Source: Eubacteriaceae bacterium UBA6119 (lineage in GTDB: Bacteria > Bacillota > Clostridia > Eubacteriales > UBA1433). Taken from it: a stretch of DNA of 64,000 nt. The translations under genes and the position numbers were made by a program. Positions 115-60,005 of this stretch are shown here, one piece after another. Under the pieces are notes generated by a model that made no database searches, was not told the DNA's origin, and was given only the letters and a program-made list of their open reading frames with translations. Positions within the stretch are counted from its first letter, which is position 1; the number at the start of each line of letters is the position of its first letter. Where the stretch lies: NCBI GenBank assembly GCA_002423395.1, contig DIVZ01000007.1, positions 132,442 through 196,441 of the forward strand, in the 5' to 3' direction.

Positions 115-678
115 ATGCAGGGATATTTTGCGCTGGCAACAATAATTTTACTTATAATTCTAGTATTGTCCAGAGTCTTTATGATGAAAAAGTTAGGTAT
201 TAAAGCTATGAAATTCGGTGAGATTGATAAAAAAGATTTTTTAATACCACCGTTTGCTTTTTTGTTTTTATATCTTATATTTGCAAGCGCACTAGGATTG
301 CCTAAACCCGGACACGAACTGTTTAATAATGAGATTGCAGCATGGATTGGCGTGATATTATGCATACTCGGTTTGGTATTATTCTTGTCTAGTGTGATTT
401 CTTTTGGGAAAAGCTTCAGAGTCGGCATAGACGAAGACAGCCCGGGCGCATTGATAACTGCCGGCGTTTTTGCAATAAGCCGTAACCCAATCTATACTGC
501 GTTTGGATTAATTCTAATCGGAATATTTTTAATTTTTCCAAATTGGATAATATTAATATATTTAATATTAGGAATATGGCTTTTCAATCGTCAGGCGCTG
601 CTGGAAGAAAAATCTTTAATAAAAATTTACGGGCAAGAGTATATAAACTACTGCAAAAAAGTACGAAGATATATTTAG
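115..678 (+). CDS. Membrane methyltransferase, ICMT/PEMT family
   Basis: 187-aa polytopic ORF. The C-terminal 'ISRNPIYTAFGLILIG ... EEKSLIKIYGQEYINYCKKV' fits the RNPxY / EE..L...G..Y..Y signature of isoprenylcysteine-carboxyl / phospholipid methyltransferases. Confidence 0.7.
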   Translation: MQGYFALATIILLIILVLSRVFMMKKLGIKAMKFGEIDKKDFLIPPFAFLFLYLIFASALGLPKPGHELFNNEIAAWIGVILCILGLVLFLSSVISFGKSFRVGIDEDSPGALITAGVFAISRNPIYTAFGLILIGIFLIFPNWIILIYLILGIWLFNRQALLEEKSLIKIYGQEYINYCKKVRRYI

Positions 679-790
679 ACGCTGTTTAATACATTTTAAA
701 CCATAAAATTACCAATAATAAACAAAATATCTTACAAAAATAATCTTGATTATATTATAAAAATTTGATAATATATTAAATAATTTAAAA

Positions 791-846
791 AGCACAAATG
801 GGGTTCACCACCGAAAGGGTGATACTCGTTTGTGCTTATTTTTTTG
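791..846 (+). promoter_or_regulatory. Terminator-embedded leader hairpin upstream of thiW; candidate HMP-PP (thiS-motif) riboswitch
   Basis: Outer stem AGCACAAA (791-798) / TTTGTGCT (829-836). Inner stem TCACC (805-809) / GGTGA (818-822). Asymmetric internal loop TGGGGT / TACTCG, then TATTTTTTTG (837-846). It sits between a plausible promoter (TTGATT 746-751, 17 nt, TG-n-TAATAT 766-774) and the thiW start at 872. The TPP-riboswitch core (CTGAGA) is absent from 679-871. Confidence 0.4.
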
Positions 847-871
847 CTTGACAATGAAAGGCGGTATTTAA

Positions 872-1378
872 ATGAACCCTAAAAAAATGAACACTAAAAA
901 GCTGGTTTTTGCAGCAATGCTTGTTGCGATAGGCACGCTTACAGCGAATGTAATCTACATACCAGTAGGAGTAGCTAAATGCTTTCCGATGCAGCATACA
1001 ATAAATGTTCTTTCGGCTGTTCTGCTCGGCCCGTGGTACGCGGTTGCCAACGCATTTTTAATCTCACTATTGCGTAATTTCTTGGGAGTAGGCTCGTTGC
1101 TTGCGTTTCCGGGGAGTATAATAGGTGCATTATTGGCGGGACTGCTTTTTGCCAAATTCAAAAAAATTCCTTTTGCTCTGGGCGGAGAAGTGTTTGGAAC
1201 AGGAATATTGGGAGGGCTTTTATCTTTTCCAATCGCAAAATTTATATTAGGCAAGGACGTTGCGGCGTATGCTTTTATAGTTCCTTTTCTGATAAGCACA
1301 ATAGGAGGGAGCTTACTTGCGTACCTTATATTAAAAGTAATAAATTGGAAGAAATATAAGAATGATTTAAACAAATAA
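872..1378 (+). CDS. thiW: ECF-type thiamine-precursor (thiazole) transporter S component ThiW
   Basis: 168 aa with about 5 TM segments. 'FPMQHTINVLSAVLLGPWYAV...LLRNFLGVGSLLAFPGSIIGALLAGLLF...GEVFGTGILGG' matches my recollection of ThiW family sequences. Confidence 0.7.
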   Translation: MNPKKMNTKKLVFAAMLVAIGTLTANVIYIPVGVAKCFPMQHTINVLSAVLLGPWYAVANAFLISLLRNFLGVGSLLAFPGSIIGALLAGLLFAKFKKIPFALGGEVFGTGILGGLLSFPIAKFILGKDVAAYAFIVPFLISTIGGSLLAYLILKVINWKKYKNDLNK

Positions 1379-1916: not shown

Positions 1917-3020
1917 TTAAATATTTTTATTATCTTTTACAAATACCCATCGCCTCTGAATTTGAAAACTAATAAAAAACAGAACAAAATCTATAATCGC
2001 TTTTATTGCTGTTAGGTTCATACTAAGGTTATTATATACAATAGTAACAAGCAGCCACGATGCAAGCAGTTGAACTGAGCATAATAAATAGTATTTGATA
2101 ATAGAATTTTTCATTTTTGAAGTATTATTAAATACGACGTTTTTATTAACAACGTAATTAAAAAGTGAAGATATAACTCTTGCAAAAAGAGTGCTGAAAA
2201 AAATCGTCATTGATATGGTTGTAAGGTTGTTAAACATAACGGAAGATAAAAAAGCAAATAAACCAATATCAATGAAAAATGACAGCATGCCTGATAAAGA
2301 AAATTTAAAAAAGCAGCTCAGCATCATAAAATATATAAATAAAGAATCTTTAAACGGATTAAAATGAGAGGATTCATTTTTATCAATATAGATTGTTTGT
2401 ATGCTCTCTTCGGCAATATCTACCTGCTCTCTGACAGCTGAAATGAGCATACCCGTTTCATATTCAAAGTGTTCACCTTTAACAAATAAACAGTTATTAA
2501 TGAATTTATAAGGAATTCCGCGCAGCCCCGTTTGCGTGTCGTTTATTTTTTTACAATATAATAACGCAAAAACGGCAGTAGTAATTTTATTTCCCCATCT
2601 GCTTTTAAAAGGCACGTCTGACTGGTTGAAATTTCTTGTGCCTAGTATAATTTTATTATTTTCTTCCATAAGTCTTTTAGCGACATTGACAGTATCTTCA
2701 GCGCTGTGCTGACCGTCAGAATCCGCCGTAACAATACCCGCCATTTCATTATATGAGAATGTATTTATAAAATAATTAAATCCGGTCTTTAAAGCTCTTC
2801 CCTTGCCTTTATTAACATCATGGTGAAGGACAATACCGTCATATTTTTTTTCAATTAAGTTAAAATATTGCTGCGCGTCTTCTTTGCTGCCGTCGTCAAC
2901 GACAATAATTTTTTTAATTCCGGCATTTACTAAATCCTTTATATATGAAATCAATTTTTCCGAAGGATTTAATGAAGGAATTAATACTGCAACATTTATA
3001 TTATCTGTATCTTGTAGCAT
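1917..3020 (-). CDS. Family-2 glycosyltransferase fused to a GtrA-like membrane domain (polyprenyl-phosphate sugar synthase type)
   Basis: N-terminal 'VAVLIPSLNPSEKL...IIVVDDGS...TADSDGQH' (GT2 DxD/DxSDGQH). C-terminal 4-TM region 'RVISSLFNYVVNKNVVF...QRRWVF' typical of GtrA. Confidence 0.8.
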   Translation of the reverse strand: MLQDTDNINVAVLIPSLNPSEKLISYIKDLVNAGIKKIIVVDDGSKEDAQQYFNLIEKKYDGIVLHHDVNKGKGRALKTGFNYFINTFSYNEMAGIVTADSDGQHSAEDTVNVAKRLMEENNKIILGTRNFNQSDVPFKSRWGNKITTAVFALLYCKKINDTQTGLRGIPYKFINNCLFVKGEHFEYETGMLISAVREQVDIAEESIQTIYIDKNESSHFNPFKDSLFIYFMMLSCFFKFSLSGMLSFFIDIGLFAFLSSVMFNNLTTISMTIFFSTLFARVISSLFNYVVNKNVVFNNTSKMKNSIIKYYLLCSVQLLASWLLVTIVYNNLSMNLTAIKAIIDFVLFFISFQIQRRWVFVKDNKNI

Positions 3021-4587: not shown

Positions 4588-5952
4588 ATGAAAAGAAATT
4601 ATGCGGAAATAACGCCGCAGCTGAATAGTCTTGCTCAGAAATGTGTTGAGAATAATATTATACAAAAAGATTTGTATTCAAAATACAATGTAAAGCGCGG
4701 CCTGCGGGATGAAAACGGAAAAGGCGTGGTTACAGGTCTTACAAATATCTCCGAAGTAAATTCAAGACAAATTGTCAACGGAGAAGAAGTTGCATGCCCG
4801 GGAGAATTGTTTTACAGGGGTTATAATATAAAGGACTTAGTAAAAGGATTGATTGATGATAAACGATACGGTTTTGAAGAAATAATATATCTTTTACTTT
4901 TTGGCAATTTACCTGATGAAAGCAAACTAAAAGAGTTTAATCAATTGCTTGCGAGTTACAGGTCGCTTCCGACTTCATTTGCGCGAGACGTAATTATGAA
5001 GGCGCCCAGCGAAAATATAATGAATTCTCTTGCGCGCAGCGTTCTTACGCTTTATTCGTACGACAAAAATGCAGAGGACATGAGTATTGAAAATGTTCTC
5101 CGCCAGTCGCTTCAGTTAATTTCAATGTTTCCTATTTTATCCGTTTACGGATACCAGGCGTTTGATTACTATCACAAAGAGAACAAAAGCTTATTCATTC
5201 ATGACCCGCTGCCGGAACTTTCGACAGCGGAAAATATACTTCATATGTTAAGAAAAGACAGTAAGTATACCCAGCTTGAGGCAAGGATACTCGATTTAGC
5301 GCTGATACTTCATGCCGAACACGGCGGCGGCAACAATTCAAGTTTTACAATACATGTTGTTTCATCGTCAGGTACAGATACCTATTCAGCTGTCGCGGCG
5401 GCAATCGGTTCATTAAAAGGACCTAAACATGGCGGAGCTAATATAAAAGTATGCGAAATGTTTGATGACATCAAAGCAAATGTAAGCGATTGGAACGATA
5501 AGGAAGAAATAGAGCGGTATTTATCAAAAATAATTAACAAAGAAGCATTTGATAAATCAGGTCTTGTTTACGGAATCGGACATGCTGTTTATTCATTATC
5601 AGACCCCCGAGCTGAAGTGTTTAAAGAATTTGTAGAAAAACTCTCAAAAGAAAAAGGCATGGAAAAGGAATACGCTCTATACTCGTCCGTTGAAGAGCTT
5701 GCTCCGAAGCTGTTGTCAGCCAGCAGAAATATGATAAAAGGCGTAAGCGCAAATGTGGATTTTTACAGCGGTTTTGTTTATGATATGCTGGGAATTCCGA
5801 AAGAACTGTTTACACCTTTGTTCGCTATTGCAAGAATTGTAGGCTGGAGCGCACACAGAATAGAAGAACTTAATAATTCCAACAAAATTATCAGACCTGC
5901 GTATAAAGAAGTTCAGCCCAGAAGAGATTATATAGAGCTTATTAAAAGATAA
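4588..5952 (+). CDS. Citrate (or 2-methylcitrate) synthase
   Basis: 454 aa. Catalytic-region motifs 'LILHAEHGGGNNSSF', 'GPKHGGAN', 'GIGHAVY' and 'NVDFYSG'. Confidence 0.85.
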   Translation: MKRNYAEITPQLNSLAQKCVENNIIQKDLYSKYNVKRGLRDENGKGVVTGLTNISEVNSRQIVNGEEVACPGELFYRGYNIKDLVKGLIDDKRYGFEEIIYLLLFGNLPDESKLKEFNQLLASYRSLPTSFARDVIMKAPSENIMNSLARSVLTLYSYDKNAEDMSIENVLRQSLQLISMFPILSVYGYQAFDYYHKENKSLFIHDPLPELSTAENILHMLRKDSKYTQLEARILDLALILHAEHGGGNNSSFTIHVVSSSGTDTYSAVAAAIGSLKGPKHGGANIKVCEMFDDIKANVSDWNDKEEIERYLSKIINKEAFDKSGLVYGIGHAVYSLSDPRAEVFKEFVEKLSKEKGMEKEYALYSSVEELAPKLLSASRNMIKGVSANVDFYSGFVYDMLGIPKELFTPLFAIARIVGWSAHRIEELNNSNKIIRPAYKEVQPRRDYIELIKR

Positions 5953-6539: not shown

Positions 6540-7493
6540 TTGAATAGAAATATAGAGGAATGGAAAATATCAATAATAGGCGCCGGAACTATGGGGCTCT
6601 CGCTTGCATTGTTTTACGCAATGAACGGACATGAGGTTAAACTTTATAACAGAACAGCAGAAAATCTTGAAAAAGCGAAAACGCAGATAATAAGCAGTTA
6701 TTATACTTTGGTCGGTATGGGAGTTATGGAGCTTGAAGACATAGTTAAGGTAACAAGCCGCATATCATATTTTACAGATTTGAAACAAGCGGCAGAAGAC
6801 GCAGATTATGTTATTGAAAGCGTATCGGAAAACAAAGAAATAAAAAAAGGAATATTTGCAAAACTGGATGAGTACTGCACAAATGAATGCATTTTGGCAA
6901 GCAATACATCGACATTTAATATTTATGAGTTCGTAAAAGTCTCAAATCTGAAAAGGCTTGTAATTACGCATTATTTAAATCCTCCGCATATTACTCCTTT
7001 AGTAGAAATAGTAAGAGGTGAAGATACTTCGGATGAATGCGTTGATACGCTTAAAGAATTTTTTACTCATGTCGGAAAATATCCTATTGTACTTAATAAA
7101 TGCGTTGAAGGATTTTTATGGAACAGGCTTCAAATGGCGCTTGGCAGAGAAGCTACATATCTTGTTGATGAAGGACTTGCAACCGTTGAAGATATAGACA
7201 TTGCCATGAAAAAAGGTCTCGCTCCGAGATATTTGTTAAGAGGCATATTTTCCATGTACGATTTTAACGGTATAGATGTATTGAATGCGGTTTTTAACAG
7301 TACATTCCCAACTCTTTGCAATGCCGACAGCGCGCCTTTTTGCATAACCGATAAAGTATCAAAAGGGGAATTGGGCGTAAAAACGAAAAAAGGATTTAAT
7401 GATTATACAGAAAAAGATATATCAGAAGTTATAAGCGACGGAGAAGAAAAACTTATAAGCATTGTTAAGTACGCCAAAAACAATATTTGGTAA
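6540..7493 (+). CDS. 3-hydroxyacyl-CoA dehydrogenase family protein
   Basis: Rossmann motif 'ISIIGAGTMGLSLA' and the 'HYLNPPHITPLVEIV' core. The track start is GTG 6531. TTG 6540 has better spacing to the SD AGAGAGG (6525-6531). Confidence 0.75.
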   Translation: MNRNIEEWKISIIGAGTMGLSLALFYAMNGHEVKLYNRTAENLEKAKTQIISSYYTLVGMGVMELEDIVKVTSRISYFTDLKQAAEDADYVIESVSENKEIKKGIFAKLDEYCTNECILASNTSTFNIYEFVKVSNLKRLVITHYLNPPHITPLVEIVRGEDTSDECVDTLKEFFTHVGKYPIVLNKCVEGFLWNRLQMALGREATYLVDEGLATVEDIDIAMKKGLAPRYLLRGIFSMYDFNGIDVLNAVFNSTFPTLCNADSAPFCITDKVSKGELGVKTKKGFNDYTEKDISEVISDGEEKLISIVKYAKNNIW

Positions 7494-7591: not shown

Positions 7592-8794
7592 ATGCTTACG
7601 CTGGATAGAATATATAACGCGTCTCTTTTATTAAAGGATATTGCGAGAAAGACAGATCTGCTTTTATCAACAGGACTTGCAGCAGATTTTGATTTATTTC
7701 TCAAAGCGGAAAACCTCCAGACAACAGGGTCTTTTAAAATTAGGGGTTCTTATTATAAAATAGCGCAATTATCAAAAGAAGAAAAAGCAAAAGGAGTAAT
7801 AGCTTGTTCTGCTGGAAACCATGCTCAGGGCGTTGCGCTGGCCGCGCACAAAAATAATATTAAATCAACAATTTTTCTGCCCGGAAACGCTCCGATATCA
7901 AAAGTGGAAGCGACCAGACGATACGGCGCGCAGATAAAACTTGTAGACGGAGTGTTTGACGACGCATATGACGCGGCGGTAAAATACCAAAAAGAAACCG
8001 GCGCGATATTTGTTCATCCTTTTGACGATGAAAACATTATCGCGGGACAGGGAACAATAGGGCTTGAAATTCTTGAACAGCTGCCGGATGTGGACGCTGT
8101 TATAGTTCCTATAGGCGGGGGAGGGCTTATTTCAGGCATTGCTTATGCGGTGAAGAATTTAAAGCCGAACTGCAAGATTTACGGCGTTCAGGCAACAGGA
8201 GCCGCAAGCATGCTGAAATCTATTGATTATCATAAACGCAGCCCGCTTCAAAGCGTATCAACCATAGCTGACGGCATTGCCATAAAATATCCGGGAGAGA
8301 TGACTTATGAGCTTTGTTCAAAATATGTTGATCAATTTGCTTCTGTAAGCGAGGATGAAATTGCCATGGCGATACTTTCGTTGATGGAGAAACAGAAAAT
8401 TGTAGCGGAAGGCGCGGGCGCTGTGTCTGTCGCGGCCGCGATGTTTAACAAATTCCCTTTAAAAGGCAAAAAAGTCTGCGCGGTAATATCTGGCGGCAAC
8501 ATTGACGTTAATATTTTATCGCGTGTAATAAACAGAGCATTGGCCGCATACGGAAGGCTTACAAGCATAACGGTGGAACTTTTGGATAAACCCGGCAGAC
8601 TTAAAGACGTGCTTGCCATAATTGCGAAAAAAGGCGCAAATGTAATAGAAGTTGAGCATAACCGACAAGGCGATTACGCTAATATTATCAGGACATGCAT
8701 AAATATTTCAATGGAGACAAAAAATCACCAGCATCTTGCCGACATAAAAAAAGCCCTTACGGATAAAGGCTATATTCTTTTAGACAACTGTTAA
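7592..8794 (+). CDS. ilvA: Threonine ammonia-lyase (threonine dehydratase) with C-terminal ACT-like domain
   Basis: PLP-lysine motif 'TGSFKIRGSYYK', 'SAGNHAQGVA' and 'GGGGLISG'. About 80-aa regulatory tail. Confidence 0.85.
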   Translation: MLTLDRIYNASLLLKDIARKTDLLLSTGLAADFDLFLKAENLQTTGSFKIRGSYYKIAQLSKEEKAKGVIACSAGNHAQGVALAAHKNNIKSTIFLPGNAPISKVEATRRYGAQIKLVDGVFDDAYDAAVKYQKETGAIFVHPFDDENIIAGQGTIGLEILEQLPDVDAVIVPIGGGGLISGIAYAVKNLKPNCKIYGVQATGAASMLKSIDYHKRSPLQSVSTIADGIAIKYPGEMTYELCSKYVDQFASVSEDEIAMAILSLMEKQKIVAEGAGAVSVAAAMFNKFPLKGKKVCAVISGGNIDVNILSRVINRALAAYGRLTSITVELLDKPGRLKDVLAIIAKKGANVIEVEHNRQGDYANIIRTCINISMETKNHQHLADIKKALTDKGYILLDNC

Positions 8795-12852: not shown

Positions 12853-13908
12853 TTAATTTTTTGCATATTTTTTTAGTCCGTTAAAAATATATTTCTTCTG
12901 AATAATATAACTTATGAAAAACAGCATTGTATCAACAAAAATTTTAATTAACAATATTGGCATTGAAATTTTTGAAAGCAGGCTTACGAGCGCCCAGCTT
13001 GACAGCATTTGTATGCAAAATAACGCAACATATTTTATAAATTCTTTACCTATGTAGTTTTTGCTTTGAAAAACCCAGTACTTATTAAGCATGAAGTTTA
13101 TATTGCCCGAAGTTACTCTGGCGATAACGGTTGCGAAGAAAATGCCTGTTGTGCTTGTGCCGAAAACTAGGTGTGCAAGCAAAGCAAACAGAGATAAATC
13201 TGCCGCTGCCGATAGAACAGATGAAACGCTGTATTTTATTATATTTAAATAAATTAATACAGAGTCGCGCACCGTATTGAAATGACTTGAAGAGTTGTTG
13301 TCGGTGTATATAACCGAAATCGGAACATTTTTTACATCAATTTTATTGTTTGTTATTTCCATAAGCAGATTCATTTCATATTCATATCTCTTGCCCGGTA
13401 TAGCAAGGCATAAGTTTGTATAAACTGCAGGAATTCCACGAAGACCTGTTTGGGTATCTTCACATCGTTTGCCGGTGCTTAACAAGAATATAATAGATGT
13501 CAGACGGTTGCCGAAACGGGACCTTAGGGGTATATTTTTCTCGCTGAAATTCCTGGTTCCGAGAATAAAGCTCTGGGGGTGATTAATAAGAGCATTAGAT
13601 ATTTTAACAATATCACCTACAGCATGCTGTCCGTCTGCATCCGCTGTAACATAACCCGAGATATCGCGGTAGTTGCCATGAGCATATTTTATTCCTGTTT
13701 TAATAGCAATACCTTTGCCTTGATTATGCTCGTGCGTACAGACGCTGCACTTTAAATCTGTTATTAATTTTTCAAAAATGTGTTTATACTCCTCCGCGCT
13801 GCCGTCGTTTATTACTACTATCTCAAAGCCTTCTTTTTTTAAGTATTCCGCCAAATATATAAGTCTTTCATCGGGATTGAGAGCAGGTATTATAATAATG
13901 GGTTTCAT
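12853..13908 (-). CDS. Family-2 glycosyltransferase fused to a GtrA-like domain (paralog of 1917..3020)
   Basis: 'IIIIPALNPDERL...IVVINDGS...TADADGQH' plus C-terminal 'RVTSGNINFMLNKYWVF...IQKKYIF'. Confidence 0.8.
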   Translation of the reverse strand: MKPIIIIPALNPDERLIYLAEYLKKEGFEIVVINDGSAEEYKHIFEKLITDLKCSVCTHEHNQGKGIAIKTGIKYAHGNYRDISGYVTADADGQHAVGDIVKISNALINHPQSFILGTRNFSEKNIPLRSRFGNRLTSIIFLLSTGKRCEDTQTGLRGIPAVYTNLCLAIPGKRYEYEMNLLMEITNNKIDVKNVPISVIYTDNNSSSHFNTVRDSVLIYLNIIKYSVSSVLSAAADLSLFALLAHLVFGTSTTGIFFATVIARVTSGNINFMLNKYWVFQSKNYIGKEFIKYVALFCIQMLSSWALVSLLSKISMPILLIKIFVDTMLFFISYIIQKKYIFNGLKKYAKN

Positions 13909-29041: not shown

Positions 29042-30892
29042 ATGGAAGAAAATATATTTAAAAAACAAATTGAAGAAGACATTAAATATTTACAAAAAAA
29101 TAACAGCAAATATGATCTTAATCTAGAAAAGGATGAATATGCATTTAATTATTGGGTGTTAACAAAACTATTTAATATTGATGAGGAATGTGCATATGAT
29201 AATATCACAGAATACTCAGATAACGGCGTTGATTGTTTTGTTTATTTTGAGGAATTGAAAGAATTATATATTATTCAAAATAAATATTATAACGATTCTA
29301 CTCCAGTTAATAAAAATTATGTTATTAATGATTTTTTATACAGACCATTAAATACTCTAGCTTTAAATAATTATAAAAGATCTCCAAAGCTACAAGAAAT
29401 ATTTAATAAATGGAAAAACGACTCGGAATTTAAAATATTTTTATATTTTTATGTTACAAATAATATTATAGACATATCACTAATTAATACCTTTAATACC
29501 TTTAAATATTCGAATGATAAGATTGATTGTTATATTGAAGCAAAAATATTTTATCTAAATGATATTAAAGAGCAATATTTTGAAGACAGAAAAAAAGATA
29601 ATAAACAGTTTAAATGCAATTTTTTAAGTATAAATGATGGGACATTTCTAAATATTGATAAAGATAATTATAAATTACCAAATTTGACAGATGCAAAATA
29701 TATTTTAACACCTGTTAAATTAATTTATGATATAGTTAAAGAGGCAAATGATAAAAAATACTTATTATTTGAAGAAAATATCAGAGAATATTTAGGCAAT
29801 AAAGGTGTAAATGCAAAAATAGCCAAAACATTAGAAAGTGATAGTGATAGAGAAAATTTTTTTTATTATAACAATGGCATAACAATTATATGTGATGCAG
29901 TAAAAAAAGAGAGTCATAATCACATTAAGTATAAAAGACAATTTAAGGTAGATAATCCACAAATTGTTAATGGTTGTCAGACTGTTAATACTATATATGA
30001 AGTTTTAAGAAAATGTCGAATTGATGAGTTAGATAAATTTGAGAATACTTTTGTTATGGTTAAGCTTTTAGTTCTTAATAAAGCTGAAGATTCAAAATTA
30101 TACCATGATATTGTAAGATATAATAATAGTCAAACTGCTATAACAGAAAAAAATTTTGCAGCAAATAAAGATTCATTTATGAATATGTAGAAAGAATTTA
30201 AAACTAGAGGTTTATTATTAGCAGTTAAACAGAGCGATAATTATACTTTTAAAATAGAAGAAAAAATTAACCATGAATTATTACAAAATTATGAATACAT
30301 ATTTGGCTTAAAATTTAACACAATTAACGATATTATAATCCCATTAGAAAAACTGCTACAGGTTATATTGGCATTTTCACAAGACGGTTATCAGGCTTTC
30401 ACTAAAAAAAGTCAAATTTTAAAATTAGATACTTCAATATATAATTTTTTAATTGAATATATAAAAAATGGTCCGTTAACATTTGATGATATTATTAAAA
30501 TATATATGATGTTTTTAAAAGCAGAAAACGATAAAAAAAATAGTGAAGATAAGAGAACACCAATACCTTATTATTTATTAAATTTTATCGGAAACGAATT
30601 TAAAAATATAAATGATATTGAACTAAGGGAAAAATTAAATTATATTTTTTCTAATAAAGAAATATTTGATATTATTTATAAATTTTATAAATCAGTGACA
30701 AAAAGATATAAGATAGATTATAAATTTTTAAAAGGCATTGAATATAACCAAATGATTAAGTCAGCTATTGATATGAACATTTTATATAAAACTTTATCTA
30801 ATGAAGTTGAAATGTTAGAAAATAAATACGAAAAGAAAATTATAAATAATTTTAGAAATAATGCATATAAAGAAATAGAACAATTTATTTAG
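29042..30892 (+). pseudogene. AIPR (abortive infection phage resistance) family gene: one 616-codon frame interrupted by one in-frame TAG at 30188-30190
   Basis: The track ORFs 29042..30190 and 30368..30892 are in the same frame. I translated 30191-30367 by hand and found no further stop. N-terminal 'FNYWVL...DNGVDCFVYF...LYIIQNKY' and the core 'FFYYNNGITIICD...IVNGCQT' match the AIPR family. Extremely AT-rich. Confidence 0.7.
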
Positions 30893-34866: not shown

Positions 34867-35871
34867 ATGATTATATTTCAATGGTTAAACGATCAGCTGC
34901 TGAAAATGCAGTGGTTGTCTGATTTAATTAAATCATTAGTTGAAAATGTTTTTAAACTAGATATTAACGGAAGGCTCGGAGGAAGCATACATTTTTTTAT
35001 TTATGATGTAATAAAAATATTTATACTATTGTCCGTGCTTATATTTTGCATATCGTATGTGCAAAGTTATTTCCCGCCTGAGCGAACAAAAAAGATACTC
35101 GGCAGGGTTAAGGGAGTAAGGGCAAATATATTTGGAGCACTGCTAGGCACAGTTACACCGTTTTGCTCGTGTTCTTCCATCCCATTATTTATAGGTTTTA
35201 CAAATGCGGGATTGCCAATAGGAGTAACATTTTCGTTCCTGATATCATCTCCGCTTGTAGATTTGGCTTCGGTGCTGCTGCTTGCAAGCATATTTAATTG
35301 GAAAATTGCTATTGCTTATGTAATCGTAGGGCTTATTCTGGCGGTGGCTGGTGGTACAGTTATAGGCAAATCTAAGCTGGAGAGTTATGTAGAACCTTTT
35401 GTATACAATAATAAAATAGCAGATCTTGAACAGGAAGAGCTTACAAGAAAAGACAGAGCAAATTTTGCTAAAGAACAGGTGTTACAGATTATTAAGAAAG
35501 TTTGGCTGTATATATTAATAGGAGTAGGGATAGGAGCGGCGATACACAACTGGATTCCGCAGGATATAATATCCGCAGTACTGGGTCAGGACAAATGGTA
35601 TTCAGTCTTAATCGCGACAACAGTAGGAGTGCCTATGTATGCAGATATATTCGGAACGCTGCCTATTGCCGAAGCGCTTGTGTTAAAAGGAGTAGGGCTC
35701 GGAACTGCGCTTTCGTTTATGATGGCTGTAACTGCGCTTTCTCTACCTTCTATGATTATGTTAAAAAGAGTTGTAAAAGCAAAATTATTAGGTATATTTA
35801 TCGGGATTGTAACGGTAGGAATACTGATTATTGGATATGTATTCAACGCTTTTGGTCATTTATTAATGTAA
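34867..35871 (+). CDS. PF03773-type permease, ArsP-like (vicinal-cysteine motif)
   Basis: 334 aa, 8-10 TM, internal two-fold repeat. 'GTVTPFCSCSSIPLF' carries the TPFCSC motif I associate with ArsP organoarsenical permeases. Confidence 0.7.
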   Translation: MIIFQWLNDQLLKMQWLSDLIKSLVENVFKLDINGRLGGSIHFFIYDVIKIFILLSVLIFCISYVQSYFPPERTKKILGRVKGVRANIFGALLGTVTPFCSCSSIPLFIGFTNAGLPIGVTFSFLISSPLVDLASVLLLASIFNWKIAIAYVIVGLILAVAGGTVIGKSKLESYVEPFVYNNKIADLEQEELTRKDRANFAKEQVLQIIKKVWLYILIGVGIGAAIHNWIPQDIISAVLGQDKWYSVLIATTVGVPMYADIFGTLPIAEALVLKGVGLGTALSFMMAVTALSLPSMIMLKRVVKAKLLGIFIGIVTVGILIIGYVFNAFGHLLM

Positions 35872-35925
35872 AGGCCTATATAATTTTATTACAAAATAAA
35901 AATTAATGAATAATGAGGTGAAAAA

Positions 35926-36180
35926 ATGTCAAAGAAATGGTATCCGGTTATTGATTATGATAAATGCATAGAATGCGGTTCATGTGTTGATATGTGTCCA
36001 AACAACGTATATGACAAAGCTAAATCTCCATCTCCTGTTGTGATTAACCCTGATGCATGTGCTGAAGGTGGCAAAGGCTGCGGAAGTAAATGCCCGGTCG
36101 GCGCTATCGAATATGCGGGAGATACAGGGGACAATAAATCCAAAGGATGTAATTGCGGCTGTTCCTGCGGGGGATGTTAA
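35926..36180 (+). CDS. Small 4Fe-4S ferredoxin-domain protein with Cys-rich tail
   Basis: 'CIECGSCVDMCP' plus the degenerate second motif 'CAEGGKGCGSKCP'. The C-terminus is 'GCNCGCSCGGC'. Confidence 0.7.
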   Translation: MSKKWYPVIDYDKCIECGSCVDMCPNNVYDKAKSPSPVVINPDACAEGGKGCGSKCPVGAIEYAGDTGDNKSKGCNCGCSCGGC

Positions 36181-36190
36181 GAAAAATTTT

Positions 36191-36709
36191 ATGAGTAAAA
36201 AAATTTTTATTAAGATCATAGTTCCGATCTTTATAATACTTATTGTTCTAGTTATATGGATTATAAAGAATTCACAAGATAATACCAGTGATAATGCTGA
36301 AGATAATCTCGATTTTGCGCTTCATGTTACAGATAAATTGGATTTAGAGAAGCTAAAATCATATGGATTGCCTATAGTTATTGACTTTGGAGCGGACTCG
36401 TGCATACCGTGTAAAGAAATGGCTCCCGTACTTAGTGAATTAAATGAAGAACTTCAAGGAAAGGCAATAATTAAATTTGTTGATGTTTGGGAATATCAGG
36501 AATTAGCAAAAGATTATCCAATTAGTGTTATTCCTACTCAGATATTCATTGATTCGAATGGAAAGCCGTTTAACCCGGAAAACCCGGAAAGATATCAATT
36601 GAATCAATATGTATATAAAGACAGCGGTGAACTTGCATTTACTGTGCACGAAGGCGGACTGACTAAATCGGATTTATTAAAAATACTTAAAGATATGGGA
36701 ATAGATTAA
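36191..36709 (+). CDS. Membrane-anchored thioredoxin-fold protein (TlpA/ResA-like)
   Basis: Start 'MSKKIFIKIIVPIFIILIVLVIWII' (signal anchor) and active site 'FGADSCIPCKEMAP'. The track start at 36053 would overlap the ferredoxin gene and is rejected. Confidence 0.75.
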   Translation: MSKKIFIKIIVPIFIILIVLVIWIIKNSQDNTSDNAEDNLDFALHVTDKLDLEKLKSYGLPIVIDFGADSCIPCKEMAPVLSELNEELQGKAIIKFVDVWEYQELAKDYPISVIPTQIFIDSNGKPFNPENPERYQLNQYVYKDSGELAFTVHEGGLTKSDLLKILKDMGID

Positions 36710-37410
36710 TGCAGGCGCAAATTAATCACTTATTAGAGCAATTATCAATATTAATAACGTCAAATTATTGGCTTGCCCCTATGCTTGCTTTATTAGCCGG
36801 AATATTAACATCCATAACTCCATGCGCGCTTTCCAGCGTACCGCTTGTAATCGGTTATGTGGGCAGTACAGGGAGAAACAACACAAAAAAATCTTTTAAA
36901 CTGTCCATTATATTTGCTTTAGGAAGGTCATTAACATTTACGTCTCTTGGCGTTGCAGCATCGCTGCTCGGTATGATAATGGGCACATCAAGCAAGTGGT
37001 GGTATATAGTTTTAGGAGTATTAATGGTTATGATGGCGTTGCAAACATGGGAGATATATAACTTTATTCCATCCAGCTATTTAATGAGCAAAACAACAAA
37101 AAAAGGTTACATAGGTGCATTTATCGCAGGTATCTTGGGAGGTATATTTTCCTCGCCATGCGCAACTCCTGTTCTGATTGTATTGCTTGGCATAGTAGCA
37201 AGAAATGGAAATATTGTATGGGGAAGCTTACTCTTGCTGCTTTATTCAATAGGTCACAGCATTTTAGTATTGGCTGCGGGAACCTCAATGGGGTTTGTAA
37301 AAAATATAGTATCCGGCGGAAAATACGGAATATTCAGCAAGGTATTAAAATATAGCTTAGGCGGAATAATTTTGCTAATTGCATTTTATATGTTTTATTT
37401 AGGATTTTAA
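36709..37410 (+). CDS. ccdA: CcdA/DsbD-type transmembrane thiol-disulfide electron transporter
   Basis: Two conserved membrane Cys motifs 'SITPCALSSVP' and 'FSSPCATPVL'. The start overlaps the upstream stop (TAATG). Confidence 0.85.
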   Translation: MQAQINHLLEQLSILITSNYWLAPMLALLAGILTSITPCALSSVPLVIGYVGSTGRNNTKKSFKLSIIFALGRSLTFTSLGVAASLLGMIMGTSSKWWYIVLGVLMVMMALQTWEIYNFIPSSYLMSKTTKKGYIGAFIAGILGGIFSSPCATPVLIVLLGIVARNGNIVWGSLLLLLYSIGHSILVLAAGTSMGFVKNIVSGGKYGIFSKVLKYSLGGIILLIAFYMFYLGF

Positions 37411-37424
37411 AGGAGAGTTAAAAA

Positions 37425-37664
37425 ATGAAAATTAAAGTATTAGGCTCAGGATGTAAAAACTGTATAACACTGGAAAAGAACACAGCAGAAGCCGTTAAGG
37501 AAATGGGGATTGAAGCTGTAATTGAAAAAGTCAATGACTTAAATAAAATTATGGAATACGGCATTATGACTACGCCTGCTTTGGTTGTTGACGAAAAAGT
37601 GGTATCTTACGGCAAAGTGTTAAAACCTAAAGACATAGTGAAAATACTTGAAAAAGTGAGGTAA
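37425..37664 (+). CDS. Mini-thioredoxin (redox-active disulfide protein 2 / MTH895-like)
   Basis: 79 aa, 'MKIKVLGSGCKNCITLEKN', a family that commonly partners PF03773 permeases. Confidence 0.75.
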   Translation: MKIKVLGSGCKNCITLEKNTAEAVKEMGIEAVIEKVNDLNKIMEYGIMTTPALVVDEKVVSYGKVLKPKDIVKILEKVR

Positions 37665-37669
37665 TTTAA

Positions 37670-38662
37670 ATGAGTGATCAATCACAATGTTGTTCTTGCG
37701 GCAATGATTGCTGCGGCACTTCAATAGAAAAACGAAAGTTGGTTATAGATTTTTTGTTTCTTGATTTAAGTGTCTGCACACGCTGTCAAGGTACAGAAAA
37801 TAGCTTGGAAGAATCTTTAGATGAGGTAGCAAAAGTATTACAAGCAGCGGACATAGAGGTGCGGCTTAATAAAGTCAATGTCAATACAAAAGAATTGGCT
37901 GAACAATATAAATTCATAAGTTCACCAACTATTAGAATAAACGGAAAAGATATTCAAATGGATGTGAAAGAAAGCCTATGCGAATCATGCGGTGATTTGT
38001 GCGGAGATGAGGTAGACTGCCGTGTCTGGTTATACAATGGGCAAGAATATACCATACCGCCGAAAGCAATGATAATAGAAGCGATATTAAAAAATGTATA
38101 CGGAGCTAATTGTGATGAGAATATCATTGAACAAGATTATGTAATGCCTGAAAATCTTGTACATTTTTATAATGTAACGGCAAACAAAAATAAAAGCAAT
38201 TTAAAAGAGGATATTAAAATGAAAACATTAAAAATTGAATGGAGACACCTTGATATTGAAGGAGAAACATGTGACCGTTGTTATGATACAGGTGAAAATC
38301 TTGAACACGAAGTAAAAAGATTAAACAGAGCTTTAAAACCAAAAGGCATTACTGTTGAGTGGGCTGAAATAAAGCTTGATGACACAAAAATTCCGCAGTC
38401 AAACACAGTCTTTTTTAACGGAGCAGCTATTGAAGATGTATTGGATATTAAAATATCAGAAAACTATTGTCAGTCATGCACCGATCTGCTGGGCAAAAAG
38501 ACATACTGCAGAACAATACTTTTCGAAGGTGAAGAATATGAGGATATTCCGGCAAAAGCAATCCGCAAGGCTGCATATAAAGTATTAGGTATTGATGATG
38601 AAAAATCGGAAAAATCTGAGGATTCTGACTGCGGATGCGGATGCAGCGGCGGTTGCTGTTAA
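37670..38662 (+). CDS. Tandem DUF2703 protein with poly-cysteine N- and C-termini
   Basis: There are two homologous halves. Half 1 (about aa 22-145): 'LVIDFLFLDLSVCTRCQGTE...SPTIRINGKDI...CESCGDLCG..VDCRVWLYNGQEYTIPPKAMI'. Half 2 (about aa 185-310): 'LKIEWRHLDIEGETCDRCYDTGE...SNTVFFNGAAI...CQSCTDLLG..TYCRTILFEGEEYEDIPAKAI'. Termini are 'QCCSCGNDCCG' and 'DCGCGCSGGCC'. Confidence 0.65.
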   Translation: MSDQSQCCSCGNDCCGTSIEKRKLVIDFLFLDLSVCTRCQGTENSLEESLDEVAKVLQAADIEVRLNKVNVNTKELAEQYKFISSPTIRINGKDIQMDVKESLCESCGDLCGDEVDCRVWLYNGQEYTIPPKAMIIEAILKNVYGANCDENIIEQDYVMPENLVHFYNVTANKNKSNLKEDIKMKTLKIEWRHLDIEGETCDRCYDTGENLEHEVKRLNRALKPKGITVEWAEIKLDDTKIPQSNTVFFNGAAIEDVLDIKISENYCQSCTDLLGKKTYCRTILFEGEEYEDIPAKAIRKAAYKVLGIDDEKSEKSEDSDCGCGCSGGCC

Positions 38663-38790
38663 CGACAGATATCCGGATTATAAAAAAATATACTCAAAAT
38701 CCTTTTAAATATACAACGTATTATATGCATATGCAATATCAGTCATATAAGATTTTATTTTAAATATATTTGTATTAAGGAGGGATTTAT

Positions 38791-38988
38791 ATGAGTTTTT
38801 TTAAAAATCTATTTAAAAAGAATAAAGAAGAAGAAATAATTGAAGATGTTTATGATGAAAAAATTGAAGATGTAATAGAAGAGGACGCAATAGAAGAGGC
38901 TGAAGTTATTGAAGATGAAGCTAAAGAAGATATAGCGGATGATGAGCTTGAAGCAGTAGAAGAAACCGAGCTAAAGGATGAACAATAG
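38791..38988 (+). CDS. Hypothetical 65-aa hyper-acidic protein
   Basis: Strong SD (AAGGAGGG). After a basic 'MSFFKNLFKKNK' head the rest is more than 50% Glu/Asp. Followed by a terminator. Confidence 0.35.
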   Translation: MSFFKNLFKKNKEEEIIEDVYDEKIEDVIEEDAIEEAEVIEDEAKEDIADDELEAVEETELKDEQ

Positions 38989-39041
38989 TTTTATTAAGAA
39001 AATACGTAAATCAATGAGTAATCATTTACTTAATTGAAATC

Positions 39042-39071
39042 AAAAACCATTATTCTTAATAATGGTTTTTT
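39042..39071 (+). terminator. Intrinsic terminator
   Basis: AAAAACCATTATT-CTT-AATAATGGTTTTT. Confidence 0.75.
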
Positions 39072-39106
39072 GATATTATAAATAAATTAGCTTTAAGGTG
39101 AAAATA

Positions 39107-39532
39107 ATGGATAATAAAATAAATGCAGCATTTATATGCGTTCACAATTCTTGCCGTTCCCAGATAGCGGAAGCGCTTGGAAGGGTTTTAGCAAGCGATG
39201 TTTTTGAAAGCTATTCGGCGGGCACGGAGATAAAATCAGAAATTAATAAAGACGCTGTTCGCTTGATGAAAAAACTATATAATATAGATATAGAAAAGAC
39301 GCAATATTCAAAGCTGCTTACAGATATTCCGCCTGTAGATATTGTTATTACGATGGGCTGCAATGTTAATTGCCCTTATCTTCCGTGTAAATATCGGCAA
39401 GATTGGGGGCTTGAAGACCCGACAGGTAAGAGTGACGAAGAATTTGAAAAAATTATTAAGCAGATAGAAAATAATATAATAGAATTAAAACGTGATATTT
39501 TAGGCGGTAAAATAGATGCAAGGTGCGAGTAA
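39107..39532 (+). CDS. arsC: Arsenate reductase, thioredoxin-coupled LMW-PTP type
   Basis: P-loop 'CVHNSCRSQIAEA' (CX5R) and the distal Cys pair in 'MGCNVNCPYLPC'. ATG 39107 is 6 nt after the SD AAGGTG. Confidence 0.85.
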   Translation: MDNKINAAFICVHNSCRSQIAEALGRVLASDVFESYSAGTEIKSEINKDAVRLMKKLYNIDIEKTQYSKLLTDIPPVDIVITMGCNVNCPYLPCKYRQDWGLEDPTGKSDEEFEKIIKQIENNIIELKRDILGGKIDARCE

Positions 39533-39819
39533 TGATAATAGGGACAGCGGCAATAAAACTCGATATTCCATTTGCTCATTCTCTTAAAGACAAAAGGATG
39601 GTTGTAAAAAGCATAATATCAAAAGCGCAGAACAAGTTTAACATATCAATCGCAGAGACTGATGAAATGGACACAATAAAGACAGCGATTATAAGTTTTG
39701 CATGCATTGCGGCAAACACCGCGCTTGCGGACAGCATTATGCAAAACGTATTATCTTATATTGAAGCAAATACTGATGCCGAGGTTATACTGTTAAACAA
39801 GGAGAATATTATACAATGA
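39532..39819 (+). CDS. DUF503 (YlxP-like) protein
   Basis: 'MIIGTAAIKLDIPFAHSLKDKRMVVKSI' is the canonical DUF503 N-terminus. The ATG overlaps the arsC stop (TAATG). Confidence 0.7.
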   Translation: MIIGTAAIKLDIPFAHSLKDKRMVVKSIISKAQNKFNISIAETDEMDTIKTAIISFACIAANTALADSIMQNVLSYIEANTDAEVILLNKENIIQ

Positions 39820-40265
39820 TAAATCCATCCAATAAAATAAGAACAATGACGATAGATGATTATGACGGTATATACAAGCTGTGGGCGGAAACCGAAGGGA
39901 TGTGTCTTCGAAACGTTGATGATTCATATGAAGGAATTAATAAATTCATTAAAAGAAACCCCGAGACATGTTTTGTCGCTTTAGATGAGTGGCAGAAAAT
40001 AATCGGCTCGGTACTGTGCGGAAGCGACGGACGCAGAGGATATATTTATCATCTGGCAGTACATAAAAACTACAGGAAAATAGGAATAGGCAGTAATTTG
40101 GTAAATGAGGCTGCTGATGCTTTAAAAGGTTTGGGTATTTCAAAAGCGGCGTTATTAGTTTTAAGAACAAATAAAGAGGGGAATGAATTCTGGGAGAAAA
40201 TGGGATATTATGAAAGAGATGATGTAATCTACCGCGATAAGAGCCTTACCGATAAAAATAATTAA
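39816..40265 (+). CDS. GNAT-family N-acetyltransferase
   Basis: 'IYHLAVHKNYRKIGIGSNLV' acetyl-CoA binding motif (R/Q-x-x-G-x-G/A). ATGA overlap with DUF503. Confidence 0.8.
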   Translation: MINPSNKIRTMTIDDYDGIYKLWAETEGMCLRNVDDSYEGINKFIKRNPETCFVALDEWQKIIGSVLCGSDGRRGYIYHLAVHKNYRKIGIGSNLVNEAADALKGLGISKAALLVLRTNKEGNEFWEKMGYYERDDVIYRDKSLTDKNN

Positions 40266-58989: not shown

Positions 58990-59478
58990 ATGAGCAACAT
59001 ATTCTCATATTATCTTTACGGTATTGCCGTTATACTGCTTTCCATTTCTTTTGTTAAAAACAAAAGCAAAACACTTATCGCATTAAAAAAATCTCTAAAA
59101 ATGTTTTTAAATATTTTGCCGCAGTTTATAGCGATACTTTTTCTTCTAGGGCTTTTACTGGCGGCAATTCCTTCAGATGTTATTAAAAATACATTAGGTG
59201 AAAATTCCTCATTCAGTGGGATATTATTATCGGCCGCGCTTGGCTCGGCAACTATAATACCTGTGATAATTGCTTTTCCTATTGCTTCCCAGCTATTGCA
59301 AAGCGGCGCTGGAATAGTTCAGATAGCTGTTTTTATTTCAACACTTACAACTGTGGGTTTAATTACAATGCCTCTTGAGATAAAATATCTTGGTAAAAAA
59401 ACAACATATATGCGAAACATGCTTGCATTTTTATTTTCATTCATAACAGCTTATATAACGGGATGGGCGCTTAGATGA
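58990..59478 (+). CDS. Half-size permease (PF03773-like repeat unit), gene 1 of 2
   Basis: 162 aa, 4 TM. 'GILLSAALGSATIIPVIIAFPIASQLLQSGAG' resembles one repeat of the 34867..35871 permease, but without Cys. Confidence 0.5.
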   Translation: MSNIFSYYLYGIAVILLSISFVKNKSKTLIALKKSLKMFLNILPQFIAILFLLGLLLAAIPSDVIKNTLGENSSFSGILLSAALGSATIIPVIIAFPIASQLLQSGAGIVQIAVFISTLTTVGLITMPLEIKYLGKKTTYMRNMLAFLFSFITAYITGWALR

Positions 59479-60005
59479 GAATTTTTAAAAAGCATCTTTT
59501 TTTAATAGTTGTTTTAAGCGCAAATTTTGCGGCATTAATTTTCCTGCCTCAAACAGGCATTAAGTCAATTGAATTCACTCTTAAGAATTTTATGAATTTT
59601 CTGTTTATGCTCGCTCCTGTTTTTATATGCATAGGGTTAATGGATGTATGGATTGATAGAGAGACAATGGTTAAATTGATGGGCAAAAATTCAAATAGCA
59701 AGGGAATATTAATATCGTTTGCTTTTGGCGTTGTAACGGCAGTGCCTTTATACGCGCTTCTTCCTGTTGCGGGAATGCTCTTAAAAAAAGGCAGTAAAAT
59801 ATCAAACGTTTTAATTTTTATATGTTCTTCGGCAAGCATAAGAATACCTTTATTATTATTTGAGGTTTCATATATGGGATGGAAATTCACGGCAGTAAGA
59901 TTTGTTGTAAATTTATTTATTGTTTTCGCAATCGCAATAATTATTGATAAAAATCTAAATGAAAAAGATAAAAATGAAATATACGACAATGCGTATAGAT
60001 TATAA
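59475..60005 (+). CDS. Half-size permease (PF03773-like repeat unit), gene 2 of 2
   Basis: 176 aa, 4 TM. 'GILISFAFGVVTAVPLYALLPVAGMLLKKGSK'. ATGA overlap with gene 1. Confidence 0.5.
   Translation: MRIFKKHLFLIVVLSANFAALIFLPQTGIKSIEFTLKNFMNFLFMLAPVFICIGLMDVWIDRETMVKLMGKNSNSKGILISFAFGVVTAVPLYALLPVAGMLLKKGSKISNVLIFICSSASIRIPLLLFEVSYMGWKFTAVRFVVNLFIVFAIAIIIDKNLNEKDKNEIYDNAYRL

Follow-up and report, generated by a model that had tools for sequence, protein, structure and literature searches.

The window, by which we mean the whole 64,000-nucleotide stretch analysed here (contig DIVZ01000007.1 of Eubacteriaceae bacterium UBA6119), carries thiW, encoding a predicted thiazole-precursor transporter, with an ORF for a PEMT/ICMT-like membrane methyltransferase upstream of it (Table 1). 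A Pfam scan of 63 ORFs across the 64 kb revealed no thiamin genes besides thiW (thiD, thiM and thiE included), and the minus strand showed no ORF or other feature that could account for the thiW leader region. The leader itself is short, with a predicted promoter-to-ATG distance of approximately 90 nt. Its putative sigma-70-type promoter, TTGATT and TAATAT with a 17-nt spacer and an extended TG, lies exactly where the preliminary description of this sequence had placed it, and the predicted transcription start leaves about 9 nt ahead of a hairpin, in keeping with the roughly 10 nt proposed there. From the end of the -10 hexamer to the base of the hairpin the distance is 14-15 nt. The putative promoter stands between the upstream gene and the hairpin, and a fixed terminator at this place would silence thiW.

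Table 1. Features of the thiW locus (positions are those of the window).
Feature	Position	Strand	Remarks
PEMT/ICMT-like membrane methyltransferase ORF	115-678		PF04191, 1.7e-14
-35 hexamer TTGATT	746..751	+	read from the sequence; putative promoter element
Extended -10 element TGaTAATAT	766..774	+	17-nt spacer after the -35; predicted start ~781-782
Short A/U-only leader AAUUUAAA	782..789	+	without P1 5′ strand and without AGAGUG
Lower terminator stem, 5′ strand AAGCACAAA	790..798	+	pairs with 829-837 (fold)
U + GGGG, invariant thiS-motif G-run	799..803	+	OFF state: weak pairing with 825-828
P2 tip	804..823	+	stem U805-C809 / G818-A822; U804 and U823 unpaired
ACUCG, 3′ partner of the G-run	824..828	+	only variable part of the hairpin
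Lower terminator stem, 3′ strand UUUGUGCUU	829..837	+	fold and covariation
U-tract AUUUUUUU (A + 7 U) of the intrinsic terminator	838..845	+
Shine-Dalgarno-like sequence AAAGGCGG	856..864	+	7 nt 5′ of the thiW ATG; kept in the closest relative (L001)
thiW, predicted thiazole-precursor transporter (ECF S component)	872..1378	+	168 aa; PF09512, 9e-56, 188.6 bits; ATG at 872

The hairpin comprises 48 nt (AAGCACAAAUGGGGUUCACCACCGAAAGGGUGAUACUCGUUUGUGCUU; 790-837) and is located directly 5′ of the U-tract. The region 770-875 folds at -32 kcal/mol, compared to -16.8 +/- 3.2 kcal/mol for 200 shuffled sequences (z = -4.71), none of which folded as well; within 782-845 the hairpin has 18 bp and a folding energy of -28.4 kcal/mol. 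The presence of the hairpin and of the directly adjoining U-tract is therefore confirmed, and the overall two-tier layout put forward earlier also holds, while two of its details do not: the outer stem has 9 bp in the fold instead of 8, and in the minimum-energy structure most bases of the supposed 6+6 internal loop (UGGGGU/UACUCG) form pairs (U-G, G-C, G-U, G-C), with only a 2x2 loop left. The terminal loop, A810-G817 (ACCGAAAG), contains the conserved ACC.

Just past the thiW stop codon, at 1385-1397, the window has a small hairpin (CCAGUAUUACUGG) that is not followed by a U-run. At the same site the closest relative described below (L001) reads CCGGUAUUACCGG, a compensatory A-U to G-C change with respect to the window. 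A weak terminator and an mRNA stabiliser are candidate roles for this structure.

Further into the window, several gene groups were seen. At 46767-53000, a VWA-domain protein of 781 aa precedes four ORFs of ~200-225 aa without Pfam match and then a sortase, an arrangement resembling a locus for a sortase-assembled pilus or adhesin. Genes for an ArsP-type permease, a protein with a thioredoxin domain, a DsbD-like membrane protein, a tandem DUF2703 protein, an ArsC-like low-molecular-weight phosphatase and a GNAT acetyltransferase are clustered at 34867-40265, possibly as an island for arsenic or redox stress; another ArsP-like ORF pair, a split one, is found at 58990-60005. An AIPR (abortive-infection phage-resistance) domain (E = 1e-35) was recognized in an ORF at 29042-30190, which is flanked by ORFs without Pfam match and may represent a small defence island. 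Finally, the minus strand encodes two paralogues (1917-3020 and 12853-13908) in which a family-2 glycosyltransferase is fused to a GtrA/DPMS transmembrane domain; the second of them adjoins a Cthe_2159 / DUF4956 / VTC-domain gene set.

The thiS-motif core of the thiW leader

The HMP-PP riboswitch (thiS motif) was described by Atilho et al. (2019, eLife 8:e45210; PMC6478431), whose Supplementary file 2 provides 400 aligned members in Stockholm format, together with an aptamer-state structure line. The consensus core of the class, GGGG-nnnACC-ACCn-(ins)-CG-GGUnnn, is embedded in a terminator (PMC6478431). In the window the core reads GGGG-UUCACC-ACCG-AA-AG-GGUGAU (800-820 being GGGGUUCACCACCGAAAGGGU), so that all strongly conserved positions (GGGG, ACCACC, GGU) are present; the core positions are invariant in 56 published sequences and in 13 sequences that share the GAAAG loop of the window. 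The window contains the corresponding pattern (GGGGNNNACCACCN{1,8}GGGT) a single time, compared to 0 of 100 shuffles, and the element has the contiguous strong terminator stem followed by at least six U that characterizes the class. One published row, DHTCA2_contig26225/142-212 (AUCUACUAAUUAAAAAGCAUAAAAUGGGGUUCACCACCGAAAGGGUGAAAUUCAUUUUGUGCUUAUUUUUU), is nearly identical to the window, GAAAG loop included, and this loop occurs in at least two further rows of the part of the published alignment considered here. For DHTCA2_contig26225 the published table lists no annotated gene, so that its likely context, thiW, is provided by the window.

To quantify this similarity we used covariance models. 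A model in the terminator state (R1) was built on 56 published sequences (alignment A1), from which the closest rows, i.e. those with a GAAAG loop, had been left out among the published rows considered. It matched the window at 773-843 with 37.9 bits and E = 2.6e-7 (128 kb searched), whereas the next three matches in the window had E >= 0.49, and the two of them that were displayed are plain terminators matched via outer stem and U-run. A model in the aptamer state that includes the P1 stem (R2) scored the element lower, at 31.0 bits (E = 7e-5); the E-values of both models are rough owing to a shortened calibration.

The nucleotides proposed to form a pseudoknot in the class, G26 and C35, abolish function when mutated, and a G26C change at the position equivalent to the G-run abolishes switching (PMC6478431). 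Their equivalents, G802/G803 and C811/C812, are present in the window and invariant in all relatives, and columns as invariant as these yield no covariation signal. The downstream gene fits the class as well: members are associated only with genes by which the thiazole precursor HET-P is made or used, and thiW is listed 12 times in the published gene table (PMC6478431). The preliminary description had proposed an HMP-PP (thiS-motif) riboswitch at this site, and the core, the near-identical published row and the 37.9-bit match bear this proposal out. The thiW leader hairpin is thus supported, by sequence and structure, as a further member of the published HMP-PP class. Both the class and its association with thiW are already published; what is new here is another member. 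Titles and abstracts of the papers found to mention the class showed no structural follow-up.

Relatives of the element and covariation of its stems

Next we compared the leaders of 20 loci encoding ThiW relatives. Only one of them, the closest (L001, from a Eubacteriaceae MAG, ThiW 94% identical), carries the leader element of the window. Its promoter, TTGAAA-17-TATTAT, has the same position and the same 17-nt spacing. In 18 of the 19 more distant loci (L002-L020) a TPP riboswitch was found instead (RF00059, 58-78 bits; coordinates ~1230-1460, or 8-120 in L016-L018 and L020), directly 5′ of thiW in 14 loci and, in four, ahead of an ORF lying further 5′ in the operon; L011 was the only distant locus without a TPP riboswitch in the stretch examined. 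As the other thiW loci carry TPP riboswitches, orthologous leaders cannot supply covariation. Upstream of the thiW promoter, L001 has six tRNA genes (5-599), compared to the methyltransferase-like ORF of the window, and homology between the two sequences starts only ~90 nt before the hairpin, which points to a rearrangement breakpoint just upstream of the promoter.

Further relatives were obtained by scanning metagenomes with the pattern GGGGNNNACCACCGNNAGGGT. Of 120 matches, 108 were rejected as chance occurrences in G+C-rich DNA and 12 had a downstream T-run; nine of these 12 were genuine elements, all with the GAAAG loop. The GAAAG-loop loci (L001, L045, L048, L076, L093, L094, L111, L122, L125 and L139) score 37-59 bits with the terminator-state model. 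The gene directly 3′ of the element is thiS in eight of the ten (recognized by ORF products ending in VGGG), a thiH-like radical-SAM gene in one and thiW in one (L001).

In a model-guided alignment of 11 sequences (A4), which by its construction is biased towards the structure of the model, 96% of the pair cells were standard, compared to 35-57% when the partners were slid. Nine pairs change on both sides, and the observed covariation score was reached by 0 of 500 shuffles. Seven of the 12 pairs of helix 1 (the lower stem) change on both sides, and 97% of the cells of helix 2 (the P2 tip) are paired. Independently of the model, MAFFT with RNAalifold (alignment A3) recovered the P2 tip with two covarying pairs. 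In the MAFFT alignments (A1 and A3) the 3′ strand is out of register because linker lengths vary, the window having one A fewer, and it is for this reason that RNAalifold recovered the P2 tip only. Among the thiW leaders, whose comparison had been suggested earlier as a check, L001 is the only one that shares the element; the stems do covary among the 11 GAAAG-loop sequences.

The hairpins of the window and L001 differ solely in the 3′ partner of the G-run (UACUCG vs AAAACA). Across the 13 GAAAG-loop sequences, which come from different contigs, the stems differ, yet G-run, ACCACC, GAAAG loop and GGU never change. In an ordinary terminator the loop would be the part that varies.

Two of the metagenomic loci showed additional structure. 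In L045, a second terminator-like hairpin (GGGUCAGUUGAACCCUUUUU; ~5282-5330, minus strand) lies immediately 5′ of the HMP-PP element; Rfam revealed no TPP aptamer there, so that this locus has two serial terminators and one recognisable sensor. In L125, an HMP-PP element before thiS (7399-7467, minus strand) and a TPP riboswitch (8183-8279, plus strand) are ~700 nt apart, in two divergently transcribed thiamin operons with different sensors.

The missing P1 stem and other readings of the hairpin

In the published ON state, an upstream strand (AGA-G-UG-AA) pairs with the 5′ half of the terminator base to form P1, which in the published model keeps the terminator from completing (PMC6478431). 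The window lacks this strand: in the alignment to the terminator-state model the consensus AGAGUGaa stands opposite AUAUUAAA, and the conserved 5′ AGAGUG is absent. The best duplex of the window leader with AGCAC, in the 5′ strand of the stem, has +3.1 kcal/mol, compared to a median of -2.4 kcal/mol by the same measure for the 56 published members. In the 60 nt upstream, the best duplex reached 0.0 kcal/mol (p = 0.80 vs shuffles), and inspection of 640-789 by eye found neither GUGC nor UGUG. No competing fold was seen at any nascent-transcript length, the hairpin zipping up as its 3′ strand emerges.

The same arrangement recurs among the relatives. The aptamer-state model flagged non-standard P1 pairs in the displayed alignments of all ten. 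In eight of the 11 GAAAG-loop sequences a promoter of the form TTGAnn-17-TAnnnT lies 12-22 nt before the hairpin base, and in six relatives besides L001 it takes the form TTGACx-17-TAxxAT; the predicted leaders of these eight promoter-abutting copies have 6-16 nt and no P1 complement. GUGC in the promoter spacer of L001 and GCUC in that of L093 were considered as P1 strands and rejected, as they would remain untranscribed and are not conserved, the window lacking them. The published alignment itself includes, without comment, at least one row lacking P1, DHTCA2_contig26225. P1 is therefore part of the consensus and yet, judged by these sequences, evidently neither universal nor required for inclusion in the class. 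With no P1 in the window, the published anti-termination model is inapplicable as written. We tentatively propose, at somewhat below even odds, that the copies with a GAAAG loop and an abutting promoter, found in the window, in L001 and before thiS in six or more metagenomic loci, may form a functional subclass without P1, in which the terminator hairpin (~48 nt) would be the whole switch, transcription would start 6-16 nt upstream, and anti-termination would be achieved by the pseudoknot only.

The same observations can be read differently. The element may be a decayed HMP-PP riboswitch, in which P1 was lost and a fixed terminator or attenuator is left, with thiW expressed only by leak-through. 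The absent P1 strand, the lack of an alternative fold at any transcript length and the high stability of the hairpin (-28.4 kcal/mol) are as expected for such a relic. However, the layout without P1 and with an abutting promoter is not peculiar to one locus, occurring on different contigs, and copies of it precede essential thiazole-branch genes (thiS operons) with all aptamer positions invariant. Moreover, loop and G-run should decay in a relic, whereas the changes between window and L001 are confined to the 3′ partner of the G-run, where they are irrelevant to the ligand. We thus regard decay as unlikely.

Less probable still is that the GAAAG-loop elements sense another thiamin-related compound, e.g. 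HMP-P, HMP or a thiazole derivative. Riboswitch classes with variant ligand specificity are known in general, and the loop of the window is 2 nt longer than the consensus ACCNCG, while P1 and the 5′ AGAGUG are missing. Against a change of ligand, all positions that are >97% conserved or were tested by mutation (the G26 and C35 equivalents) are retained, the gene context (thiS, thiH, thiW) is that of the main class, and the published alignment includes GAAAG-loop rows as well as other loop insertions, e.g. UCAUAG.

We consider it very improbable that the hairpin is an ordinary terminator of the upstream PEMT-like gene, with a misread promoter and a coincidental likeness to the thiS motif. In favour of this reading, no other terminator-like site was found between 678 and 790, and the hairpin has an A-tract on its 5′ side, a common trait of terminators. 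Coincidence is nevertheless hard to reconcile with the absence of the core pattern from all 100 shuffles and with an E-value of ~3e-7 for the terminator-state model. In addition, L001 has the element and the promoter before thiW with a tRNA cluster upstream instead of the methyltransferase-like gene; with different upstream neighbours, the element thus travels with thiW.

An overlooked TPP riboswitch, as carried by 18 of the 19 more distant thiW relatives, can be dismissed for practical purposes, since RF00059 gave no match at the gathering score in the 64-kb window and none at E<=10 in 650-950, and since the ~90 nt from promoter to ATG could not accommodate both the aptamer of 105 positions and an expression platform. 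The same model detected TPP riboswitches at 19 other loci (58-78 bits), which validates the negative result and agrees with the preliminary description, where no TPP aptamer core had been recognized in the leader.

For the HMP-PP class, a negative result in Rfam carries no such weight, although the preliminary description had named a missing thiS-motif match among the refuting outcomes. A cmscan of 650-950 with Rfam 15 at E<=10 returned noise only, e.g. MicC and rli60. No HMP-PP/thiS family was reported by Rfam 15 for the ten loci scoring 37-59 bits with our own model, among them elements of 45-59 bits directly 5′ of thiS, nor, at E<=10, for the region 380-640 of L076, where a 59-bit match lies directly before thiS. 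The Rfam 15 copy used does not detect the HMP-PP class. Because it misses even this control, its negative result is uninformative for HMP-PP and valid for TPP. Leaders of the HMP-PP class would accordingly be annotated as bare terminators with this copy. Across the whole 64-kb window, Rfam found no family at the gathering score, tRNAs and further riboswitches or leaders included.

Putative switching mechanism and control of thiW

Taken together, we consider it probable (roughly 0.8) that the element acts on transcription as an ON riboswitch of the HMP-PP (thiS-motif) class, with thiW as the single gene under its control. Ligand and ON logic are assigned to the window element by analogy, because they are established for the published class, where they rest on genetics and on in vitro transcription of a P1-containing member, as well as on a Clostridium lundense thiW reporter (PMC6478431). 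By default, a transcript starting ~9 nt before the hairpin would zip into the 18-bp hairpin, meet the U-run and stop before thiW. Accumulation of HMP-PP would signal that, of the two halves of thiamin, thiazole is limiting. The precursor would then bind the small aptamer made up of the P2 tip (804-823), the ACC-containing loop and GGGG (800-803), the terminator would be left incomplete, and RNA polymerase would read through, so that the thiazole importer is made. Such a response has been rationalized for the class: excess HMP-PP means that thiazole is limiting, and turning on a thiazole importer answers this need (PMC6478431; Pfam ThiW).

For a copy without P1, we infer that G802/G803 and C811/C812 may form an H-type pseudoknot, with U804 as a one-nucleotide linker across the 5-bp P2 tip. 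Stabilised by the ligand, this pseudoknot would withdraw the G-run from the stem, so that the zipper no longer runs on continuously from the tip downwards, and the remaining weak 9-bp A/U-rich lower helix, with its three G-C pairs, would have to nucleate alone beside the U-run. With the G-run withdrawn, lower stem and tip together still have a computed energy of -17.5 kcal/mol, and the lower stem alone approximately -7.5 kcal/mol. Given the -17.5 kcal/mol that persist without the G-run, read-through would have to be kinetic or steric. In the M3 mutant of the published work, where the corresponding G-U segment is weakened, expression is leaky and still inducible; base identity in the M3 region (the 3′ partner of the G-run) is not critical, the ligand response being kept (PMC6478431). 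Both this behaviour of M3 and the confinement of the differences between window and L001 to the M3-equivalent region fit with withdrawal of the G-run.

Compared to the published HMP-PP class, the window element has the same GGGG/ACCACC/GGU core and P2 tip, an aptamer within an intrinsic terminator followed by a U-run, a thiazole-branch gene downstream and the same expected ON logic. It differs in lacking P1 and the 5′ AGAGUG, in a loop (ACCGAAAG) that is longer by 2 nt, and in a promoter that abuts the hairpin, with ~64 nt from the predicted start to the U-run. The closest known arrangement is the tandem leader of Clostridium lundense, in which thiW is likewise the regulated gene and the HMP-PP core is shared. 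There, a TPP riboswitch comes first, expression needs HMP-PP and the absence of TPP, and the HMP-PP unit has a 5-bp P1 (UUAUG/CAUAA). When the TPP aptamer was mutated, this leader was switched on by added HMP (PMC6478431, Fig. 6). Unlike thiW of C. lundense, thiW of the window would be under HMP-PP control alone, without TPP veto and without P1. The TPP riboswitch (THI element, RF00059) resembles the window element in its place before thiW or at the head of the operon and in its use of a terminator; it differs in its unrelated ~105-nt aptamer and in being an end-product OFF switch, and it is absent from the window.

The interest of this locus lies in a promoter-abutting form without P1, in the replacement of TPP control of thiW, and in an element missed by the Rfam copy used. 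Should the proposed subclass without P1 hold true, its members would be among the smallest complete riboswitches and would achieve anti-termination without strand sequestration. The copies lacking P1 would thereby provide a natural test of whether P1 competition is necessary, or whether the embedded aptamer with its pseudoknot is enough. In this lineage, thiW would be under ON control by the pyrimidine precursor in place of the OFF control by TPP seen in 18 of 19 distant relatives.
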